From assembly GCA_040905565.1 (NCBI GenBank), contig JBBDRF010000006.1, positions 39,058 to 59,999 on the forward strand: a stretch of DNA of 20,942 nucleotides. Direction: 5' to 3'. Positions within the stretch are counted from its first letter, which is position 1. Every line of letters starts with the position of its first letter. The position numbers and the translations under genes are program-made. This document shows, one piece after another, positions 12,050 through 20,899 of the stretch. The notes beneath the pieces are model-generated. The model was not told where the DNA came from and did not search any database. It was given only the letters and a program-made list of their open reading frames with translations. Source of the stretch: Phycisphaeraceae bacterium (lineage in GTDB: Bacteria > Planctomycetota > Phycisphaerae > Phycisphaerales > Zrk34).

Positions 12050-12167
12050 CCCCCCCACTTCCCGTCCCCGCATCAACCGCGCAAGAGCCGGGCTGTCCGC
12101 ATCCCGCCCCGCCCCGCCCCCCGCCGGCCCAGCTCTCTTGCTCGCCGTATTCCCAATCGTTCCCACC

Positions 12168-12195
12168 TTGACCCGCCCCGAGACCTTGCTAAAGT
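12168..12195 (+). promoter_or_regulatory. Sigma70-type promoter of tRNA-Asn
   Basis: TTGACC-16 nt-TAAAGT with an extended -10 TG, 30 nt before the tRNA. Confidence 0.6.
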
Positions 12196-12225
12196 ATGGC
12201 TCAGCCCGGATAGGGCGACAACTGA

Positions 12226-12298
12226 TCCCCGATAGCTCAATTGGTAGAGCGGACGGCTGTTAACCGTCAGGTTGGTGGTTCGAGTCCACCTCGGGGAG
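12226..12298 (+). tRNA. tRNA-Asn(GUU); anchor of the downstream island
   Basis: Acceptor TCCCCGA/TCGGGGA, anticodon arm GACGG-CT-GTT-AA-CCGTC, T-arm GGTGG-TTCGAGT-CCACC. CCA not encoded. Confidence 0.97.
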
Positions 12299-12538
12299 TT
12301 CAAGGCCGGTATCAACCCCGATACCGGCCTTATTTATGCGCCCGGCAGGCCGTGAAGCAGCCGCCACACAACCCGCTGTCGCAAAGCGATATACGCGATG
12401 CGGGCCACTCCCCGACCCAACCCGCCGTCTCCGTCCGTTAACCACCAAACGCGGGGTCGGGGCGATTTGCGACCAAAATCTCAGACTCTCTCGCCCGAGA
12501 GCGCCGACGGGTTAACAACGTTGATTGGAATGGGGTGG
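12296..12538 (+). repeat. Island leader, copy 1
   Basis: 12296-12521 aligns ungapped to 18631-18856 (offset 6335). The 12429-12538 part recurs at 18954-19063 (offset 6525). Confidence 0.92.
12302..12337 (+). terminator. Hairpin/terminator after tRNA-Asn
   Basis: AAGGCCGGTATC-AACCCC-GATACCGGCCTT, a perfect 12-bp stem followed by ATTTAT. A second copy at 18637-18672 has one mismatch. Confidence 0.65.
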
Positions 12539-12570
12539 GGGTGCGGTGCAGCGTCCACGGAAGCGAGCAA

Positions 12571-13146
12571 TCAGAGATGGGAATAGCTCGCGTACGCCGT
12601 ACAGCGGGCCAACGCCTGCCAAAAGTTCAGCTCTTGCTGCGGAACTTCAAAACGTACCACTGGCGTATTCTCATCGCCTTTGCGCGCCCAATACTCCAAG
12701 CCTGAAAAGTCGGGGAGGTATCGCCAGTTTCCATGCGCCACGGCATTCCTCAAGGCGCGAACTGGATTGTCGGTGAGAAATCTGCAGCACCTTTTGGCCG
12801 TCGAACCACCTGGCAGTTCCTTTTTCAACACTTTGAAGCACGGTTCGCCGAGGTAAACGAAGCAGATGTACAGTTGATAGACCACTTGCGCACGGGCTAC
12901 TGCTGGATGCCGATCGGGCGTGTCATGAACCAAATCCATGAACCCTTGAAATGCTCGCAATTCTTCGACGCGGTTGGCGAGCGGTATGGGCGAAGCTGCC
13001 GTGACGCGCGCTTTAGCATCCTTTGGCAGGGCGGCTACCTGAGCAGCTATCGTTGTCGCGAGCTGATTACTGTCAAGAGCGGGTAGCTTCAGATCATCTC
13101 GCAAACGCGGCGACCATATCTGCATTTGCTCGTCAAGGCGCATCAT
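12571..13146 (-). CDS. Hypothetical protein with HEPN-like RxxxxH motif
   Basis: 191 aa from ATG 13146 (GGAG RBS); contains LRNAVAHGN. Confidence 0.65.
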   Translation of the reverse strand: MMRLDEQMQIWSPRLRDDLKLPALDSNQLATTIAAQVAALPKDAKARVTAASPIPLANRVEELRAFQGFMDLVHDTPDRHPAVARAQVVYQLYICFVYLGEPCFKVLKKELPGGSTAKRCCRFLTDNPVRALRNAVAHGNWRYLPDFSGLEYWARKGDENTPVVRFEVPQQELNFWQALARCTAYASYSHL

Positions 13147-13312
13147 CTTACAGCTCCCCTGATCGGTCTTACTGTAAAAGGTATCGAGGGCGTGATTCCC
13201 GAGCAAACCGTCGCACTCCGGCTGCCTGGACCAGTCCTTCACCAGCGGCAGCGCCGACCGAAGCATCATCCCTGACCGTGCGTCATCGCACACGCTCGAT
13301 AGAATGGCTCAC

Positions 13313-13852
13313 ATGACCCCGGCTGAAGCCCACCCATCACCCCGCGCGATCATCATCGCCGGGCCCAACGGCGCAGGCAAGACGACGTTCGCACGCGAGT
13401 TCCTGCCCGCCGAGGGTGAGTGCCCCACCTTCATCAACGCCGACCTGATCGCGGCGGGGCTCTCACCGTTTCAGCCAGAGACGATGGCGATCGAAGCATC
13501 GCGACTCATGCTCGCCCACGTTCGCCAGAGTGTGGAGCGGCGAGAGGACTTCGCCATTGAAACGACGCTCGCCGGTCGGGCCTACGTACGGATGATTCGC
13601 GACTGGCAAGCTGTGGGTTACCGGGTCCGAATGCTGTTCCTGCAACTGCCGTCGCCCGACATGGCGGTTGCTCGCGTGCGCGGTCGCGTGGCGCAAGGTG
13701 GTCACAATCTCCCCGAAGCCGATATTCGCCGCCGTTTCGACCGCGGGTTGAGGAACTTTGACGACATTTATCGACCACTCGTCGATGCGTGGTCGGTCTA
13801 CGACGCCAGTCACTGGCCGCCCGTGTTTCTTGATGAAGGGGTGAACGAATGA
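13313..13852 (+). CDS. Zeta-toxin-like / predicted ABC-type P-loop ATPase (COG4185-like)
   Basis: IIIAGPNGAGKTTF, FINAD.IA.GLSPF, FAIETTLAG, RV..RV.QGGH.lP...IRRRF. Start is ATG 13313 or 13304. Confidence 0.88.
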   Translation: MTPAEAHPSPRAIIIAGPNGAGKTTFAREFLPAEGECPTFINADLIAAGLSPFQPETMAIEASRLMLAHVRQSVERREDFAIETTLAGRAYVRMIRDWQAVGYRVRMLFLQLPSPDMAVARVRGRVAQGGHNLPEADIRRRFDRGLRNFDDIYRPLVDAWSVYDASHWPPVFLDEGVNE

Positions 13853-14817
13853 TTCAACAGGACGATCGCTATCGTGACCTAGAAGGCAGCCGCGCCGCGA
13901 TGATCCGTGCCGCGCGACGGGCGGCCGAGGTGGCCCGGCAGCACCAGCAGCCCCTCATCCTCTGGCGCGATGGCCGCATCGTCGAGGTGATGCCCGACGA
14001 CCTGCCGCCACTGCCGGAGCAAGCGCCGCGGAAAACTGAAGCAGATATCGATCCGCAGGCCGACCGTCAATCAGCATGTGACCGGGCACAAGAACTCGCC
14101 TGGGATGCGATGGAGGCCAGCGACGAGGAGCAAATGGCCCGGCTGTGCCGACAGGCGTTGGCGATTTACCCCAACTGTGTTGATGCGCTCAGTATGCTCG
14201 CGGAGGTCGAATGCGAGCGGGTCAGGGACTACGTGGCCGCGATGCGACGAGCGGTTGAGGCCGGGCGACGCGACCTTGGGCCGGAGGTGTTCGAGCAGGA
14301 GAAGGGCCACTTCTGGCTGGCTATCGAAACCCGTCCCTTCATGCGTGCCATGGCGGGGCTGGCCGACGCGCTGTTGCAGTGGGGACAACCCGAGCATGTG
14401 GACGAAGCAATCGCGATCTACGAGGAGATGCTTGAGCTCAACCCCAACGACAACCAGGGCATCCGTTACCTGCTGCCAGGCTGCTACCTTCAGCGTAAGA
14501 GATATCGCGAGGCGGCAATTCTGTTAGATGAGCATGGTGATGAAGGGATGGCGGCCCTGGCGTGGGCGCGTGTTCTGCTGGCGTATGCCGTTGGGAACGA
14601 GGACGAGGCGAGCGACCTGCTCAAGGAAGCACGGGAGCAGAACCCATACGTCGAACTGTATCTGACTGGCCGTAAGCGTCGCCCACGAACGCGGACGGAC
14701 TACTACTCGCCCGGGGACGACACGGAAGCCCTCGTTTGCGCGGATGCGCTTTGGGAGGCGTGGAAGAAGCATCCGAAGGCAAAGCGTTGGCTGAAGGAGC
14801 AATGCGAGGCGCAATGA
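13849..14817 (+). CDS. Fusion of a ~60-aa ATPase-partner domain to a TPR/ST7-like domain
   Basis: N-terminal AMIRAARRAAE...PLILWRDGRIVEV; C-terminal AQELAWDA, CVDA, ETRPFMRA, MLELNPNDNQGIRY, EQNPYV. ATGA overlaps with both neighbours. Confidence 0.75.
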   Translation: MIQQDDRYRDLEGSRAAMIRAARRAAEVARQHQQPLILWRDGRIVEVMPDDLPPLPEQAPRKTEADIDPQADRQSACDRAQELAWDAMEASDEEQMARLCRQALAIYPNCVDALSMLAEVECERVRDYVAAMRRAVEAGRRDLGPEVFEQEKGHFWLAIETRPFMRAMAGLADALLQWGQPEHVDEAIAIYEEMLELNPNDNQGIRYLLPGCYLQRKRYREAAILLDEHGDEGMAALAWARVLLAYAVGNEDEASDLLKEAREQNPYVELYLTGRKRRPRTRTDYYSPGDDTEALVCADALWEAWKKHPKAKRWLKEQCEAQ

Positions 14818-16133
14818 ATGCCTTGCTCCGTCAGATGGCAGCCCCTCACCAGCCCATCCGCTACGCGATCTACACCCGCCAGTCGGTCGAGCAGTTGGCG
14901 GACTTCTCATCGTGCGAGGCCCAGTTCCACACCTGTCGTGACTTCGCCGAGGCGTCGGGCGAGCGGGGCCTGGTCTGGTGCGGCCAGCGATTCGACGACG
15001 AGGGCGAGTCCGGTGCGACGCTTGATCGGCCCGCCATGCGGAAGCTGCGGAAGGTCGTCGACCTCGGCGGCATCGACCGCATCTACGCCGTCGCCCTCGA
15101 CCGCGTCACGCGCAGCATGCGCGATGCGACCCTGCTGATGGATGACTTTGAGAAAGCCGGCGTGGAGGTGCGATTTGTTCACCAGCCTGAGTTGACTTTC
15201 GGCGCGCAAGGCCGCTTACTTAGACACGTTATGGCAGCCTTTGCGGAGTTCGAACGCGACATGATCACTGCACGCCTCGCCGAGTCACGCACGTACCTCA
15301 AGAAGCACGGCCGACGCCTTGCCGGCAAAGTCCCCTACGGCTACGACGCCCATCCGCACACCCGGCAGCTCGTGCCCAACGCGGAGGAAGCCCCGCGCGT
15401 CGTCGCCATTTTTGAGCGGGCGGCGAAGGGTGAACGGCCGAAGCAGATCGCTGACGCCATCGATGCACTCAACTGGCCGACGAAGATCTACCACGCCAAA
15501 CGTTCCGGCAGGACCACCGGCGGCGGCAAATGGACCGCCCGACAAGTCACTGACACGCTGCGCAACCCGGTCTACATCGGCCGCTTCGCCGAGGGTGCCG
15601 ATACACGCGACGGCTGCCATGAAGCGATTGTCGATCGGGCGACGTTCGACGCCGTGCAGAAACAACTCGACTCCCGCCGCACGACCGAGCGCCAAAAGCG
15701 CACGCGCCACGACCACCTGCCGTTCCGCCAGAAGATCGTCTGCCCCCGCTGCGGTCGCTTATTGGCGACGCACCAGACCACGCGGAGGGTTTCCAGCGAC
15801 ACGACCATCGTGGACTACTTCTACCAATGCCGATCCACCGCCGGCGGCCGCTCACCCTGTCCGGGCGTTCGGCTACACGCGTGGAAGTTCGAACAGCTCG
15901 TCCTCGGCCTCTTCGACGACGCCGCCACCTGGCGCACGCTCTTCGGCCAGGACGCATCCGACTTGCTGATCCACCAGGTCATGCAAACCTGGCGTGAGCT
16001 GCTCCCGCTCTGGAAACGCGACTGGCTTCGCGAAGCCATCCAGCGCATCGAGATCATGGAAACCGGTGAGACGGAAGCCGACATCTCCATCACCTTCACC
16101 GCCGACGCCGCCAAGCCGTTCCTGGCCCTTTGA
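14814..16133 (+). CDS. Large serine recombinase (intact, 439 aa)
   Basis: Catalytic YTRQS, DEGESGATLDRP, LDRVTRS, FAEFER; recombinase domain PYGY, LRNPVYIG, HEAIVD..TF..VQ; zinc ribbon CPRCG...YQC...C. Start at ATG 14814 overlaps the upstream stop. Confidence 0.95.
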   Translation: MNALLRQMAAPHQPIRYAIYTRQSVEQLADFSSCEAQFHTCRDFAEASGERGLVWCGQRFDDEGESGATLDRPAMRKLRKVVDLGGIDRIYAVALDRVTRSMRDATLLMDDFEKAGVEVRFVHQPELTFGAQGRLLRHVMAAFAEFERDMITARLAESRTYLKKHGRRLAGKVPYGYDAHPHTRQLVPNAEEAPRVVAIFERAAKGERPKQIADAIDALNWPTKIYHAKRSGRTTGGGKWTARQVTDTLRNPVYIGRFAEGADTRDGCHEAIVDRATFDAVQKQLDSRRTTERQKRTRHDHLPFRQKIVCPRCGRLLATHQTTRRVSSDTTIVDYFYQCRSTAGGRSPCPGVRLHAWKFEQLVLGLFDDAATWRTLFGQDASDLLIHQVMQTWRELLPLWKRDWLREAIQRIEIMETGETEADISITFTADAAKPFLAL

Positions 16134-16175
16134 AAGCGACCTACGACGTCGTCTGTTAAGCAGTCGGTCGCAGTC
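16132..16175. other. Putative att site T1 (quasi-palindrome centred on CT 16153-16154)
   Basis: GAAAGCGACCTACGACGTCGT-CT-GTTAAGCAGTCGGTCGCAGTC with symmetric GCGACC/GGTCGC arms. Homology with the second unit stops exactly at 16175. Confidence 0.65.
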
Positions 16176-16229
16176 TCGGGATAGACTGTATCGGGTGTAC
16201 CAGCAAAGCGACAGGAGGTCGAAGCAGAT

Positions 16230-16778
16230 ATGGTGAGATACAAGGTGCTGATCGGTCGCATGCTGGTCGTGCTCGCCGGGGCCCTCTGGCTCGGTGGGCT
16301 GACGTTCTACGCCTCGGTGGTGATCCCGACGGCCCACGGCGTGCTGGGCAGCCACACCACGGTGGGCTTCATCACCCGGCAGGCGACCGGGTGGATCAAC
16401 ATTCTGGCGGTGGTCGCGCTGGTCGTGTTCTTGGGGAACCTTGTCGCCACGCGGGCCGCTCATGGACCCCGGCTGCGCCTGGCGCTGGGCGGCGCGTGGG
16501 CCGCGATGGCGGCCGTGCAGGTGGGCCTGTTCGCCCTCCACCCGCGGCTCGACCGGCTGCTTGATCCCGAGGCGATGGAGATCCTCGCTTCGGAGCGGTT
16601 CTACGCCCTGCACCAGGTCTACCTGATTGGCACCAGCGCGCAGTTGCTGGCAGGGCTGGTCTTTCTCGCATGCGTGCTGACCGTGTGGGGTCGTCAGGAC
16701 ATGCTCAAGATTAAGCGCGCCAGCTCTCGCCTTTCCTCTGCAAGCCAGCCACGTGAGGTCGCTGGCCATGTTGCTTGA
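16230..16778 (+). CDS. Four-TM membrane protein (DUF4149-like)
   Basis: AGGAGG RBS; LWLGGLTFY..VV.P, HPRLD, FY.LH..YL; four hydrophobic segments. Confidence 0.72.
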   Translation: MVRYKVLIGRMLVVLAGALWLGGLTFYASVVIPTAHGVLGSHTTVGFITRQATGWINILAVVALVVFLGNLVATRAAHGPRLRLALGGAWAAMAAVQVGLFALHPRLDRLLDPEAMEILASERFYALHQVYLIGTSAQLLAGLVFLACVLTVWGRQDMLKIKRASSRLSSASQPREVAGHVA

Positions 16779-17049
16779 AGGACGAGCTGATCCATACTAC
16801 CGGTCGCCGCCAACACATGATTTTGTTGCAAGCAACGCGCGGCAGGTTACCGCTTACAGCGGGGGATAGATGGTGCCCTCCTCGCAATTCCCGATGGAGC
16901 GCCCGACTTGCCACGCCATGTCCCTCCCCCGCTCATCGTCGAGCGTCGGCGGGAGATCATCGACCTGCTCGCCCGCCACCTCACGCGGATGCTTGGTGGC
17001 GTCGCGATCGCTCCATGCGTCGTCCAGATCTACCCAGTAAAATGAGGTC

Positions 17050-17261
17050 ATGGTTGAGCAGGACGATCGCTACCGCGACCGCGAAGGCAGCCGCGCTGCG
17101 ATGATCCGTGCCGCGCGGCGTGCGGCCGAGGTGGCCCGCAACATGGACAGCCGCTGGTCTTCTGGCGTGATGGCCGCATCGTCGAGGTGATGCCCGACGA
17201 TCTGCCGCCTCTGCCGGAGAAAGCTCCACGCCATGAAGGACCCTCGCGCGAAGATACTTGA
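17050..17261 (+). pseudogene. Stand-alone copy of the ATPase-partner gene, frameshifted
   Basis: DNA homology to 13849-14033 with a 1-nt deletion after 17138 (GCCCG-CAA vs GCCCGGCAG). The restored frame ends at TGA 17259-17261. Confidence 0.8.
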
Positions 17262-18572
17262 GCGACTGGTCGAAGGCCCACCCAAGCCGAAGCCCATCCG
17301 CTACGCGATCTATACCCGCCAGTCCGTCGAGAAGCTGGTGGACTTCTCGTCGTGCGAGGCTCAGTTCCACACCTGTCGCGACTTTGCCGAGGCGACCGGT
17401 GAGCGCAGCTTGGTCTGGTGCGGACAGCGGTTTGATGACGAAGGCGAGTCCGGCGCGACGCTCGATCGGCCCGCGATGCAGAAGCTGCGGAAGGTTGTTG
17501 ATCTCGGCGGCATCGACCGCGTTTATGCCGTCGCGATCGACCGCGTGACCCGCAGCATGCGCGATGCGACCCTCTGATGGATGAGTTCGAAAAAGCCGGC
17601 GTGGCGGTGAGATTTGTTCACCAGCCTGAGTTGACGTTCGGAGCGCAAGGCCGCTTACTTAGACACGTTATGGCAGCCTTTGCGGTGTTCGAACGCGACA
17701 TGATCACTGCACGCCTCGCCGAGTCACGGACGTACCTCAAGAAGCACGGCCGACGCCTCGCCGGCAAAGTCCCCTACGGCTACGAAGCCGACCCGCACAC
17801 CCGGCAGCTTGTGCCCAACGCGGAGGAAGCCGCACGCGTCGTCTCCATTTTCGACCGGGCAGCGAAGGGGGAACGGCCCAAGCAGATCGCCGACGCCATC
17901 AATGAACTCAATTGGCCGACGAAGATCTACCACGCCAAACGCTCCGGCAAGACCACCGGCGGCGGCAAGTGGACTGCTAGGCAGATCACCGACACGCTGC
18001 GCAACCCGGTCTACAGCGGCCGATTCGCCGAGGGTGCCGATACACGCGACGGCTGCCATGAAGCGATTGTCGATCGGGCGACGTTCGACGCCGTGCAGCA
18101 ACAGCTCGACTCCCGCCGCACGACGAAGCCGCAGAAGCGCACGCGCCACGACCACCTGCCGTTCCGCCAGAAGATCGTCTGCCCTCGCTGCGGCCGCTTT
18201 CTGACAACGCACCAGACCACGCGGAGGATTTCCAGCGAAACGACCATCGTGGATTACTTCTACCAATGCGGCTCCACAGCCGGCGGCCGGCCACCCTGCC
18301 CGGGCGTTCGGCTGCACGCGTGGAGGTTGGAACAGGCTGTCCTCGGCTTCTTCGACGACGCCGCCACCTGGCGCACGCTCTTTGGCCAGGACGCATCCGA
18401 GTTGCTGATCCACCAGGTCATGCAAACCTGGCGCGAACTGCTCCCGCTCTGGAAACGCGACTGGCTTCGCGAAGCCATCCAGCGCATCGAGATCACGGAA
18501 ACCGGTGAGGCCGAAGCCGACATCTCCATCACCTTCACCCCCGACGCCGCCAAGCCGTTCCTAGGCCTTTGA
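17233..18572 (+). pseudogene. Large serine recombinase copy 2, split by a 1-nt deletion
   Basis: 17291-18614 is homologous to 14851-16175 (roughly 90% by eye). CCCT-CTGATG vs CCCTGCTGATG at 17573/4 gives 114-aa and 331-aa ORFs. AEFER is changed to AVFER. Confidence 0.88.
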
Positions 18573-18626
18573 AAGCGATTTACGACGTCGCCTGTTAAGC
18601 AGCCGGTCGCAGTCCTGTAAGGGTGA
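18571..18626. other. Putative att site T2 with a tRNA-Asn-like 3' fragment
   Basis: Homologue of T1, centred on CT 18592-18593. Right half CTGTTAA-GCAGC-CGGTC-GCAG-TCCTGT resembles a tRNA 3' half missing its T-loop. Confidence 0.6.
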
Positions 18627-18630
18627 TTTA

Positions 18631-18856
18631 GAGTTCAAGGCCGGTATCAACCCCGATACGGGCCTTATTTATGCGCCCGGCAGGCCGTGAAGCAGCCGCC
18701 ACACAACCCGCTGTCGCAAAAGGATATGCGCGATGCGGGCCACCCCCCTGCCCAACCCGCTTTCTCCGCCTGTTAAACGCCAAAAACGCGGTCAGGGCGA
18801 TTTTCCGCCAAATTCTCTGACTCTCGCTACCGACCCTCGCGACGGGTTAACAACGT
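18631..18856 (+). repeat. Island leader, copy 2
   Basis: Ungapped direct repeat of 12296-12521; the first ~90 nt are nearly identical. Confidence 0.92.
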
Positions 18857-18953
18857 CGTCTCAAGCGGGGGCGCTTCAGCAGCTCGCGAGTATCGAACAG
18901 TTTAACAGGTAGCGGCGACCGTGTCACGAGCGCGATCATCATCGCCGCCGCCC

Positions 18954-19063
18954 TCTCCGCCGTTAATTGCGAATGCGCCCGGGGGGCGTGGTCTCCGCCA
19001 GACTCTCAGACTCTCGCCGCCGAGACCCGCCGCGCGTTAACCACGTTGTTTGGAATGGGGTGG
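18954..19063 (+). repeat. Partial leader, copy 3 (GTTAA module)
   Basis: GTTAA (18962), CTCAGACTCTC (19005) and GTTAAC.ACGTTG.TTGGAATGGGGTGG (19036-19063), with the same spacing as copy 1. Confidence 0.8.
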
Positions 19064-19108
19064 CAGGACAAGGCATCGAGGCCGCTGTCCTTTTTGCTAC
19101 GTGTCGCC

Positions 19109-19786
19109 TTATTCACGTCGCTCCTCGCGAACCGGCTTGATTTCGACGGGCACGTCGTCGGAGTTGCATTCAAGCCATTCGACGTCGAACCTTCCGCGAT
19201 AGCCGAAGAGCGGCCCCCACGTGTTATTGGTGACACGCACCTCGATTCCGAACTGCTCCCGGTCGTCATCGTACCATTCGCACACTTCCGCATAGCCCGA
19301 AGCGATCATGGGGAAGCGGAAGCCGATCATACCTTCGTAGAAACGCTGCTCGCCCGAGCGAATGCACAGGCTGCCACCTTCGCCGACGGTTGGATGAATA
19401 TCGACTGCGAGATGTTGATGCGAACCGAGATAGTCGACGATGCACTGACGCTGTTCGCTATAGACCATGGTCGCGTCGAACCGCCGTGGTGTGGAAGTTT
19501 CAAATTGGCGGACCCAGGTGACCGTCTCGCGGCCAAACGAATCTACATACGCATAGTTGTGGATGGCAAACGCGATGTTCTGCCCGCGCTCTGGAAACAT
19601 GATGCGTCGCCAGGTACCGATATAGAGAAAGGGGAGTGTGTAAAATCGGCCCCGCCAGATGTCTTCCATGACGCCCCGCCCGATTGAGGCCACGCCATCA
19701 GTGCTACTGAAGCCGAACCGCTGTTGGATCTTAGGGTGTAGCCGCTGGAAGTCTTCGCCGAGCGCCCGCTGATAGATTGAAATCAT
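19109..19786 (-). CDS. DUF4166 domain protein (YndH-like)
   Basis: SIYQRALG.DF.RLHP.IQ.RF, FPERG.NI.F.I.N, R.F....RRFDATM, DYLG, GPLFGYRG.F. AAGGAG RBS; ATGA overlap with the upstream gene. Confidence 0.85.
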   Translation of the reverse strand: MISIYQRALGEDFQRLHPKIQQRFGFSSTDGVASIGRGVMEDIWRGRFYTLPFLYIGTWRRIMFPERGQNIAFAIHNYAYVDSFGRETVTWVRQFETSTPRRFDATMVYSEQRQCIVDYLGSHQHLAVDIHPTVGEGGSLCIRSGEQRFYEGMIGFRFPMIASGYAEVCEWYDDDREQFGIEVRVTNNTWGPLFGYRGRFDVEWLECNSDDVPVEIKPVREERRE

Positions 19787-20700
19787 ATCGGCTCCTTAGG
19801 TTTGCGGCGCAGGCAGCGCCGAGCCGAAGGTAGGTCGCGGCAGCAAACCCAGCCAAGCGTTGCCAGACTGATCATGCCCACGCTGAGCGTCAGAGGGTTG
19901 AATGGGGCGACGTAGATGCTCGGCATCGTCATCAGCGCCCCGAGGCCCAAGGCGAGAAGCAGGACGATGGTCACTATGTAGAGAGATCGCCAGCGCCAGA
20001 GCGCGATCAGCAGCACGGCGAACGCGACCTCGCCGAGGCCGAACGCGAGGAGCATCGCTTCTTCGCGGCCATCGAAAAGGCCCGAGGTGCGAAGCATCGC
20101 CAATTCATCTTCGTGCTGAAGCACTAGCTTGGGGACAATTCCCTGGTAAAGGAAGATCAGGGCCAGCGTCACTCGGCAGATCGCATGGCCGAGGCTCCGA
20201 AGGGCGGACAGTCCGGGATCGACGCCGCGTTCGAGCCAAAGGCGAAGTCGGTCAAAGCTCCACGCTGTCGCCCAGCCGATCAGGGGGCGGAAGAGGAATC
20301 GGTCGACGAGCGCGCCAACAGCACCATAGCGAGGCTTGTAGTCATATAGAGTTAGAAAGCAAATGCCGCCGCGAGTCTCGATGTATTTCCAGTACCCCGA
20401 GCCTTCCTCAATCAGCGACTTTGGGTCGTTCGAGGCGAAACGCAGTGCCGAAGAACTTTGGCCGTCGGCGTCATGTATCCCCACGCTTTCGCCCGTGCCT
20501 TCTACCCGAATGCCGAGGCCGATGCGGGTCTGATAGCTGAATCGCTGAGGCTCATCGTCAGTCGGCCTCGGGAGGTAATGGATTTTCGTGAAACGCAGGT
20601 CCCAACGCTCATGAAGGTGCGGATCTCGCGTGTGACGCCAGAGTGCGTCGAAAGGCGCGCCGATTCGGATCTCAACATAGATGGGTTTGGCAGTCCTCAA
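19783..20700 (-). CDS. SRPBCC-like + DoxX-like membrane protein (YndG-like)
   Basis: KPIYVEI.I, HERWDLRF, GSGYWKY, FLT.YDY, WATAWSFDRLRLWLE, YQGIVPKL, PFNPLTL. Start placed at TTG 20700 (GGAG RBS); GTG 20787 is also possible. Confidence 0.8.
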   Translation of the reverse strand: MRTAKPIYVEIRIGAPFDALWRHTRDPHLHERWDLRFTKIHYLPRPTDDEPQRFSYQTRIGLGIRVEGTGESVGIHDADGQSSSALRFASNDPKSLIEEGSGYWKYIETRGGICFLTLYDYKPRYGAVGALVDRFLFRPLIGWATAWSFDRLRLWLERGVDPGLSALRSLGHAICRVTLALIFLYQGIVPKLVLQHEDELAMLRTSGLFDGREEAMLLAFGLGEVAFAVLLIALWRWRSLYIVTIVLLLALGLGALMTMPSIYVAPFNPLTLSVGMISLATLGWVCCRDLPSARRCLRRKPKEPI

Positions 20701-20862
20701 CGCGGCTCCACCACTTGCTTCGGCAAATCGCGTCACGATTGTCGGCACGATCCTATCCAGCGCTTGCACGTGTATTTCGAATGTCACAATTTGCTTACGC
20801 CGCCGCTGTTGATCGAGTCAAGATAAACGTACGGGTCCCGAGGAAGTGCAACAACATCTGCC

Positions 20863-20899
20863 ATGACGGACCCTCGCGCGAAGATTTTGAGCGACTGGT
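20863..20899 (+). other. 5' end of a third recombinase copy, truncated by the sequence end
   Basis: ATGACGGACCCTCGCGCGAAGATTTTGAGCGACTGGT matches the copy 2 start ATGAAGGACCCTCGCGCGAAGATACTTGAGCGACTGGT, one base shorter. Confidence 0.75.

Follow-up and report, generated by a model that had tools for sequence, protein, structure and literature searches.

A stretch of 20,942 nucleotides from a Phycisphaeraceae bacterium (GenBank assembly GCA_040905565.1, contig JBBDRF010000006.1, positions 39,058 to 59,999 of the forward strand; G000:C6:39058-59999 in our numbering, where G000 is the source genome and C6 the window's contig), referred to below as the window, carries an intact tRNA-Asn gene followed by successive large serine recombinase (LSR) genes. 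Two short sequences close behind the first two of these genes, T1 and T2, share the anticodon-loop heptamer of the tRNA. We propose with good confidence, on the strength of sequence comparison, that T1 and T2 are the right ends of elements stacked behind tRNA-Asn and joined at GAG, the last three bases of the tRNA, and that the adjacent LSR, which lacks a coiled coil, likely made these joins, likely cutting at GA. The LSR is also likely to recognize the tRNA-like sequence at the end of each unit. Units run in the order leader, cargo, LSR and T, each with one LSR gene and a size of 2.5–6 kb, and their joins read tRNA-GAG-leader or T-GAG-leader. An earlier note on this DNA had taken T1 and T2 for attachment (att)-related ends of LSR elements at tRNA-Asn, which our comparison supports, and had placed the crossover in the anticodon loop, which it does not.

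The GAG junction and the T end

Relatives were gathered from genomes, metagenomes (the best 80 of at least 401 confirmed stretches) and viral contigs, and gave a set of 133 junctions, among them 117 at GAG and 14 at CTA. The points at which homology breaks off, on either side, confine the junction to GAG (12296-98 and 18631-33). In all eight loci where a tRNA junction and a T junction occur together, leftward identity comprises exactly GAG. All nine of the cross-type pairs that involve T (n = 12, identity at least 90%) begin aligning at the G of GAG, and L056 (at a tRNA) and L068 (at an end of another type, here called a U end) share one element, 97.3% identical over 1503 nt, from 3 nt before GAG. 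Near-identical T arms part ways directly after GAG or GAGCCA (19 pairs listed), for example L056/L065 (34/36) and L058/L073 (32/36). The leader profile begins at or beside GAG alike after a tRNA, a T, a U end or an orphan tRNA 3' half, and GAG follows 12 of 15 non-seed T arms that were scored without the GAG columns. In contigs from two sequencing runs the leader at 12296 is preceded by T-type sequence (run X1 may be the source sample); runs X2–X4 hold small shares of the sequence and are the basis of no habitat claim. Breakpoints at this GAG were the outcome that the earlier note had itself named as speaking against its crossover.

Because the base preceding GAG in T is never the G of the tRNA (22 T, 10 A, 1 C) and 31 of the 33 T sites retain GA, the core narrows to GA or AG, of which we consider GA the probable one. 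It could be argued that short elements, that is, those with the short LSR described below, enter within a duplicated leader, through its 3' box or by homologous recombination, so that T-GAG-leader would be an inherited internal segment. Flanking leaders are often near-identical (L047, 100% over 458 nt; L056, 91%; L083, 93%; window, 86%), and the leader contains an att-like inverted GTTAAC pair. However, a leader match follows GAG in 20 of the 33 T sites and in 13 there is none (leader truncation or a short contig accounts for some of these), and immediately past GAG the right-hand neighbors of near-identical T arms are unrelated. We therefore regard entry within the leader as improbable, and retain GAG as the place of joining.

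The heptamer CTGTTAA of the anticodon loop (12257-63) is present in T1 (16153-59) and T2 (18592-98), as the earlier note had observed, and two additional copies lie at 18770 (+) and 18902 (-), making five in the window versus a genome mean of 0.34 per 21 kb. The 39-nt distance to the junction is indeed the same in the tRNA (12257 to 12296) and in T2 (18592 to 18631), with a spacing of 6335. Around its CT, T1 is symmetric as well: arm positions 9-10, 12-17 and 20-21 match, to which we add 4 and 6, for 12/22, a value reached by 143 of 20,852 window positions (0.7%). This symmetry and the exact retention of CTGTTAA in 21 of 33 T sites favor a crossover at the anticodon-loop CT, with T as a palindromic att site centered there. 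Yet CT-centered symmetry is 10/22 in T2 (reached by 5% of positions), 5/22 in the tRNA, 10 in T3 and 4 in T4, its mean over 33 related T sites is 5.3/22 against a null of 5.8, and the CT dinucleotide, kept in 23 of the 33, is changed in 10. A crossover at the CT would moreover need a tRNA 3' half after each T, or a hybrid of a tRNA 5' half and a T 3' part, whereas T carries an element-specific arm and no tRNA 5' half joined to a T right part occurred among 38 tRNA 5' halves (including duplicates and one tRNA-Lys). With the breakpoints at GAG, we consider such a crossover very improbable and read the T1 palindrome as a chance feature of T1; CTGTTAA is, on these alignments, a distal part of the left arm, 32–40 bp off the junction. 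Calls of tRNA-Ala (L056), tRNA-Ile (L111) and antisense tRNA-Asn (L058/59), 91–93 nt long, look spurious and were set aside.

The T consensus, 3' of the stop codon of the LSR clade, reads CTGTTAACC-N4-GGTT-N6/7-AGTCAG-N5-TTT[TA]-GAG. The full motif is present in T2 and in T3 and T4, which lie on another contig (C61), and T1 ends 16 nt short of GAG. The homology of T1 and T2 had been said to end exactly where the symmetry does. On the right it does stop at 16175/18614, whereas on the left it continues through recombinase genes that are about 90% identical; nor is the right-hand limit the edge of the site, as T2, T3 and T4 are alike for 16 more nt to GAG and into the leader. The limit at 16175 exists because T1 is truncated, and T1 is probably a dead end. 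T2 is complete although LSR2 is frameshifted. A small inverted repeat with 6-bp arms (16171-16188) overlaps the point of truncation.

When T is aligned with the tRNA 3' half (arm positions numbered from G71), CTGTTAACC (32-40) and GGT(T) (24-27) keep the register of the tRNA; GAGTC is displaced by 2 nt, and T arm and tRNA agree at 8 of 31 positions. The claim that the anticodon-loop motif and the variable-loop GGT are kept at tRNA register thus holds for the T consensus. Recognizable tRNA 3' halves without a 5' half precede leaders at 9 of 133 junctions (e.g. L143:1545, L074:4798); a Pfam search of 28 ORFs (open reading frames) upstream of U ends and orphan halves found no tyrosine integrase. 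Because these orphan halves stand in the position of T, the comparison suggests that T evolved from a displaced tRNA fragment, which would explain the shared CTGTTAA and the 39-nt register. T could even be a decayed tRNA 3' fragment left by a tyrosine-type integrator of the anticodon loop, with no present role: in length and register it corresponds to a tRNA 3' half, and the orphan halves make this plausible as its origin. However, T lies 1–135 nt after the LSR stop, its non-tRNA consensus (GAGTCAG...TTTT) is kept across LSRs 42–71% identical to LSR1, and no tyrosine integrase was present among the 17 window ORFs scanned. A T without present function is therefore scarcely credible to us, and we continue to treat T as the end of an element. 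It is present in 25 of 35 scorable short-LSR loci, the number left once 18 loci had been removed as duplicates or near-duplicates and 2 because of contig ends.

A recombinase without the coiled coil

LSR1 matches PF00239, PF07508 and PF13408, all above cut-off. TP901-1, SPbeta, Bxb1, LI/A118 and phiC31 integrases are among its top matches by sequence and fold, the best fold matches of its model being SPbeta, Bxb1, LI and phiC31 integrases; its closest LSR relatives come from Phycisphaerae, Phycisphaeraceae or Planctomycetota. In the tree, a quick search of which we use only the split between short and long clades (Shimodaira–Hasegawa-like approximate likelihood-ratio test, SH-aLRT, 100), LSR1 belongs to the short clade. 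The interval from the last Cys of the Zn ribbon to the C-terminal strand measures 60 aa in LSR1. Of the 33 short-clade rows, 31 have 57–63 aa here and 2 are truncated; of the 33 long-clade rows, 31 have 134–148 aa, 1 is truncated and L103 has 66 aa. In an AlphaFold2 model of LSR1 (mean predicted local distance difference test score 83.5) the interval holds four short helices, none longer than 13 aa. Judged by alignment and model, the LSR1 clade is without the coiled coil of ~80 aa by which known serine integrases control direction. The exception among long-clade LSRs, L103:4095-5102, sits on a long branch and is possibly a second, independent coiled-coil loss.

Could such an enzyme integrate? 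For the LI integrase, removal of the coiled coil leaves binding normal and permits excision with all four site pairs tested, with no intermolecular integration in E. coli (PMC3783163) and small amounts only in vitro (PMC5499577). It is therefore conceivable that, with the GAG junction kept, the long, coiled-coil-bearing LSR of neighboring elements integrates in trans and the short LSR only excises or reshuffles array units, like an unregulated resolvase. Long LSRs are indeed encoded behind this leader, at tRNA-Asn as well as tRNA-Met, and are found in one array with short LSRs (L002, L046, L125; C15 of the source genome itself). However, T forms an end type of its own, which goes with the short LSR and has no U-type motif, and the short clade retains its catalytic and Zn-binding residues: R22, S24, R72, D96, R97, R100, C310, C339 and C349 are invariant and C313 near-invariant among 48 sequences of 51–72% identity. 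Integration in trans appears to us unlikely, though it deserves to be taken seriously, and we favor the short LSR as the enzyme that made the joins.

For this short LSR we propose the following course. An excised circle would carry T-GAG-leader and recombine with tRNA-GAG-x, so that the leader side would restore the tRNA through G73, no long duplication would arise, and each new insertion would push the older elements outward. Donor and target would be alike in build, with a tRNA-type left arm and a leader right arm, and the substrates would resemble the products. Because donor and target have the same build, no directional control would be needed, which fits the loss of the coiled coil; in the LI integrase the coiled coil forbids such like-with-like pairings. 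The GTTAAC motifs in T, tRNA and leader, beyond the usual 25-bp footprint, may be extra binding sites that aid synapsis; this is the weakest step. Tentatively, then, a natural coiled-coil-less integrase clade may recombine like with like, pairing a tRNA-mimic end plus leader with tRNA plus leader, and may read the anticodon loop 32–40 bp from a cut at the discriminator end. Accessory GTTAAC sites in the ~230-bp leader would replace the coiled coil in the fashion of a res site. Throughout Phycisphaerae this would allow cassettes to stack reversibly at tRNA-Asn without a recombination directionality factor (RDF), and in the sister family at tRNA-Met the leader box would follow the anticodon of that tRNA.

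Arm motifs, leaders and known systems

The T-loop sequence TTCGA begins at position 18 in every tRNA arm (55 of 55); 15 of 33 U ends have it at 23, which corresponds to the 5-bp shift between attB and attP motifs described for serine integrases (PMC3783163). U ends probably belong to long-LSR elements, on the basis of the outer parts of two contigs (G064:C7, G131:C19). On the leader side, an inverted GTTAAC-like motif stands 34–37 nt after GAG in 78 of 117 GAG junctions; if the core is GA, this distal GTTAAC lies 5 bp further out on the leader side. The 3' box of the leader (12473-12521, 18808-18856, 18995-19049) has CTCTC twice, 7 nt apart, and GGTTAAC 19 nt on, in leader 1 as CTCTC-NN-GACTCTC-N19-GGTTAAC with its GTTAAC at 12511. 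It is the best-conserved leader part in all leaders, cargo begins directly behind it, and it may serve as an accessory site or in cargo capture. Elsewhere in the source genome, isolated matches to the leader box and to part of the leader occur at G000:C5:193931-194015 and C20:21066-21216.

A sister family occupies tRNA-Met(CAT), with a CTA core at tRNA positions 71-73 (14 of 133 junctions), the same leader build and a long LSR; its members are G000:C15:47470-52941 (L009, in the source genome), L033, L035, L222, L227 and L234. GTTAT, which resembles the Met anticodon loop in inverted form, closes the leader 3' box at 8 of 14 CTA junctions versus 0 of 117 GAG junctions, a covariation that may be a single inherited event. 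At L089:1632-1897 and L041:400-9986 the short LSR and the tRNA point in opposite directions. A T end in L089 runs at its GAG straight into mid-leader sequence on the reverse strand, an arrangement that suggests inversion or insertion at a secondary site.

Several observations weigh against a short LSR that joins these elements at GA. Besides the failure of the shortened LI integrase to integrate in E. coli, T is absent close by in 10 of the 35 short-LSR loci, and the relatives compared are not independent of one another. The 19 seed T arms were anchored on GAG and the cores in the junction tally were chosen by GAG or CTA, so that these counts are partly circular. Directional serine integrases use an attP of about 50 bp, quasi-palindromic and centered on the crossover, an identical 2-bp crossover in both partners, a one-way reaction of attP with attB, and RDF-dependent excision; no GA-centered palindrome was found, symmetry of the T-leader joins about GA being 4.9/22 against the null of 5.8, and the 5.3/22 about CT gives no such attP either. 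T lacks the 5-bp-shifted TTCGA, with no match to TTCGA in 21 of 22 T arms and one at position 10, and the motif positions in U ends (23) and leaders (21) would be symmetric about G70-G71, not about GA. The leaders of the window lack the inverted GTTAAC at the usual spot, with a terminator there instead and GTTAAC further in (12437, 12511), and the GTTAAC motifs at 33-38 fall outside the 25-bp LI footprint. No circle or excision joint was seen among the assembled contigs, an absence that carries no evidential weight, and no empty site was found in a close syntenic relative. The genes around the leader-less tRNA-Asn of G011 and beyond the last T of G013 are scattered over several contigs of the source genome, and the TRAP gene adjoining the window's tRNA is absent from all relatives' loci examined, so that the search for an empty site is uninformative.

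LSR cassettes of the staphylococcal cassette chromosome (SCC/SCCmec) build composite islands at one gene end. LSR1 differs from their Ccr recombinases in its scores (83.5 bits against a CcrB cut-off of 900; 59.5 against 700 and 51.2 against 900 for other Ccr models), in its single gene without a ccrAB pair and in its tRNA target; relaxed site pairing has been reported for CcrA/B (PMC3783163). Phage large serine integrases (LI/A118, SPbeta, Bxb1, phiC31) share the domain order, the catalytic residues and a very short common core, and their 5-bp motif shift is seen here in the sister U ends, whereas the LSR1 clade lacks the coiled coil, the T arm is tRNA-like rather than attP-like, motifs reach 40 bp and the target is a tRNA 3' end. 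The nearest published case found is DsiB at transfer-messenger RNA (tmRNA) in the Dehalococcoides ssrA islands (PMC3146451). These too are LSR-associated islands that follow one another in tandem at an essential RNA gene, in its 3' part, and some of their members are decayed and have no recombinase; we see such stacking in the window and at C61, L042, L050, L056, L058 and L098. There, however, the target is the tmRNA T-loop, the direct repeat is 20 bp long and the 540-aa DsiB is encoded with DsiA in a six-gene module at attL (PMC3146451), whereas here a 3-bp core lies at tRNA-Asn 71-73 and a 439-aa enzyme is encoded at the far end. Tyrosine-integrase islands at the tRNA anticodon loop (Islander site A) use the same gene class and carry anticodon-loop sequence at their far end; the systems differ in the serine enzyme, the absence of a displaced tRNA 3' half at T and the junction at the 3' end.

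The Islander paper describes serine integrases as not known to use tRNA genes (PMC4383910, 2015), the table rows consulted in a review of integrative mobilizable elements list tyrosine enzymes at tRNA ends (PMC5704250), and the word 'tRNA' is absent from the main text of PMC10083194. Whether serine integrases at tRNAs have been catalogued is not settled by the main texts of PMC12424338, PMC12884075 and PMC13626063. We found no description of this LSR family or of a natural coiled-coil-less clade in the literature searched, a scope outside which most subscription papers fall.

Array layout and distribution

The features of the array are collected in Table 1. ARAGORN called no tRNA-Asn in the assembly other than the one at the head of the array, and an Rfam scan over 12100-19200 returned that tRNA and nothing more. 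At the frameshift of LSR2 the window agrees with the sequencing run that holds most of the stretch. The end of contig C61 (reverse) holds broken LSR3 pieces together with T3 and T4, with GAG at C61:22575 and 19698, and we infer that the array runs on from C6 into C61.

Table 1. Features of the array of elements behind tRNA-Asn in the window
Feature	Position	Strand	Remarks
tRNA-Asn(GTT), intact	12226..12298	+	ARAGORN, Rfam; 3' half is the putative target (B-type) arm
Anticodon loop CTGTTAA	12257..12263	+	putative distal left-arm motif, not crossover
GAG, tRNA positions 71-73	12296..12298	+	left junction of array from homology breakpoints; crossover likely GA
Leader 1, putative left end of element 1	12296..12524	+	terminator-like hairpin 12302-12331; GTTAAC at 12437
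Cargo ORF, 240 aa	12571..13293	-	no Pfam or NCBIfam match
Zeta-toxin-like AAA ATPase	13304..13852	+	also after leader in L002, L003
Small conserved ORF (13849-14030) reading through into TPR protein	13849..14817	+	
LSR1, 439 aa	14814..16133	+	Resolvase, Recombinase, Zn ribbon; no coiled coil predicted
T1, putative truncated right end of element 1	16132..16175	+	lacks final 16 nt and GAG core
Cargo ORF, hydrophobic	16230..16778	+	no significant family; occupies expected place of T1 end and element 2 leader
Putative left-module remnant of element 2	16943..17230	+	stretch like L002 14395-14446, then small ORF copy 2 (17050-17230)
LSR2, ~90% identical to LSR1	17233..18572	+	1-nt loss near 17573 breaks frame (TGA 17575-77)
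T2, putative complete right end	18585..18633	+	46-nt arm: CTGTTAA 18592-98, GGT, GTAAG, GATTTA; GAG core 18631-33
Leader 2, putative left end of next element	18631..18859	+	86% identical to leader 1
Extra copy of leader 3' box	18995..19049	+	downstream of leader 2
Element 3 cargo: DUF4166 (19109-19786) and DoxX-like (19783-20787) genes	19109..20787	-	
LSR3 start	20864..20898	+	cut by contig end (poly-G)

A poly-G run at the contig end (20899-20942) is likely a sequencing or assembly artefact. In this part of C61 (C61:19698-24747), about 1.7 kb of other DNA interrupts LSR3, the leader at T3 has its middle deleted, and T4 has lost TTAA and is preceded by an 862-aa ORF without recombinase.

Of 151 genomes of the class, a count that includes the training genomes, 81 have a match to a model of the ~230-bp leader, and a leader is present on 11 of 15 tRNA-Asn loci from the family search. 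The viral collection contained 2 LSR loci and 1 exact T-pattern match.

A 3-bp core is too short for tools that seek displaced tRNA fragments, so that this very common island family of Phycisphaerae would be missed by them. The family could also yield compact integrases with a conserved, non-disruptive landing site. Because the coiled coil is the accepted controller of both synapsis and direction, a widespread natural clade without one raises the question of what else drives synapsis, and a 439-aa protein with defined sites makes that question directly testable.

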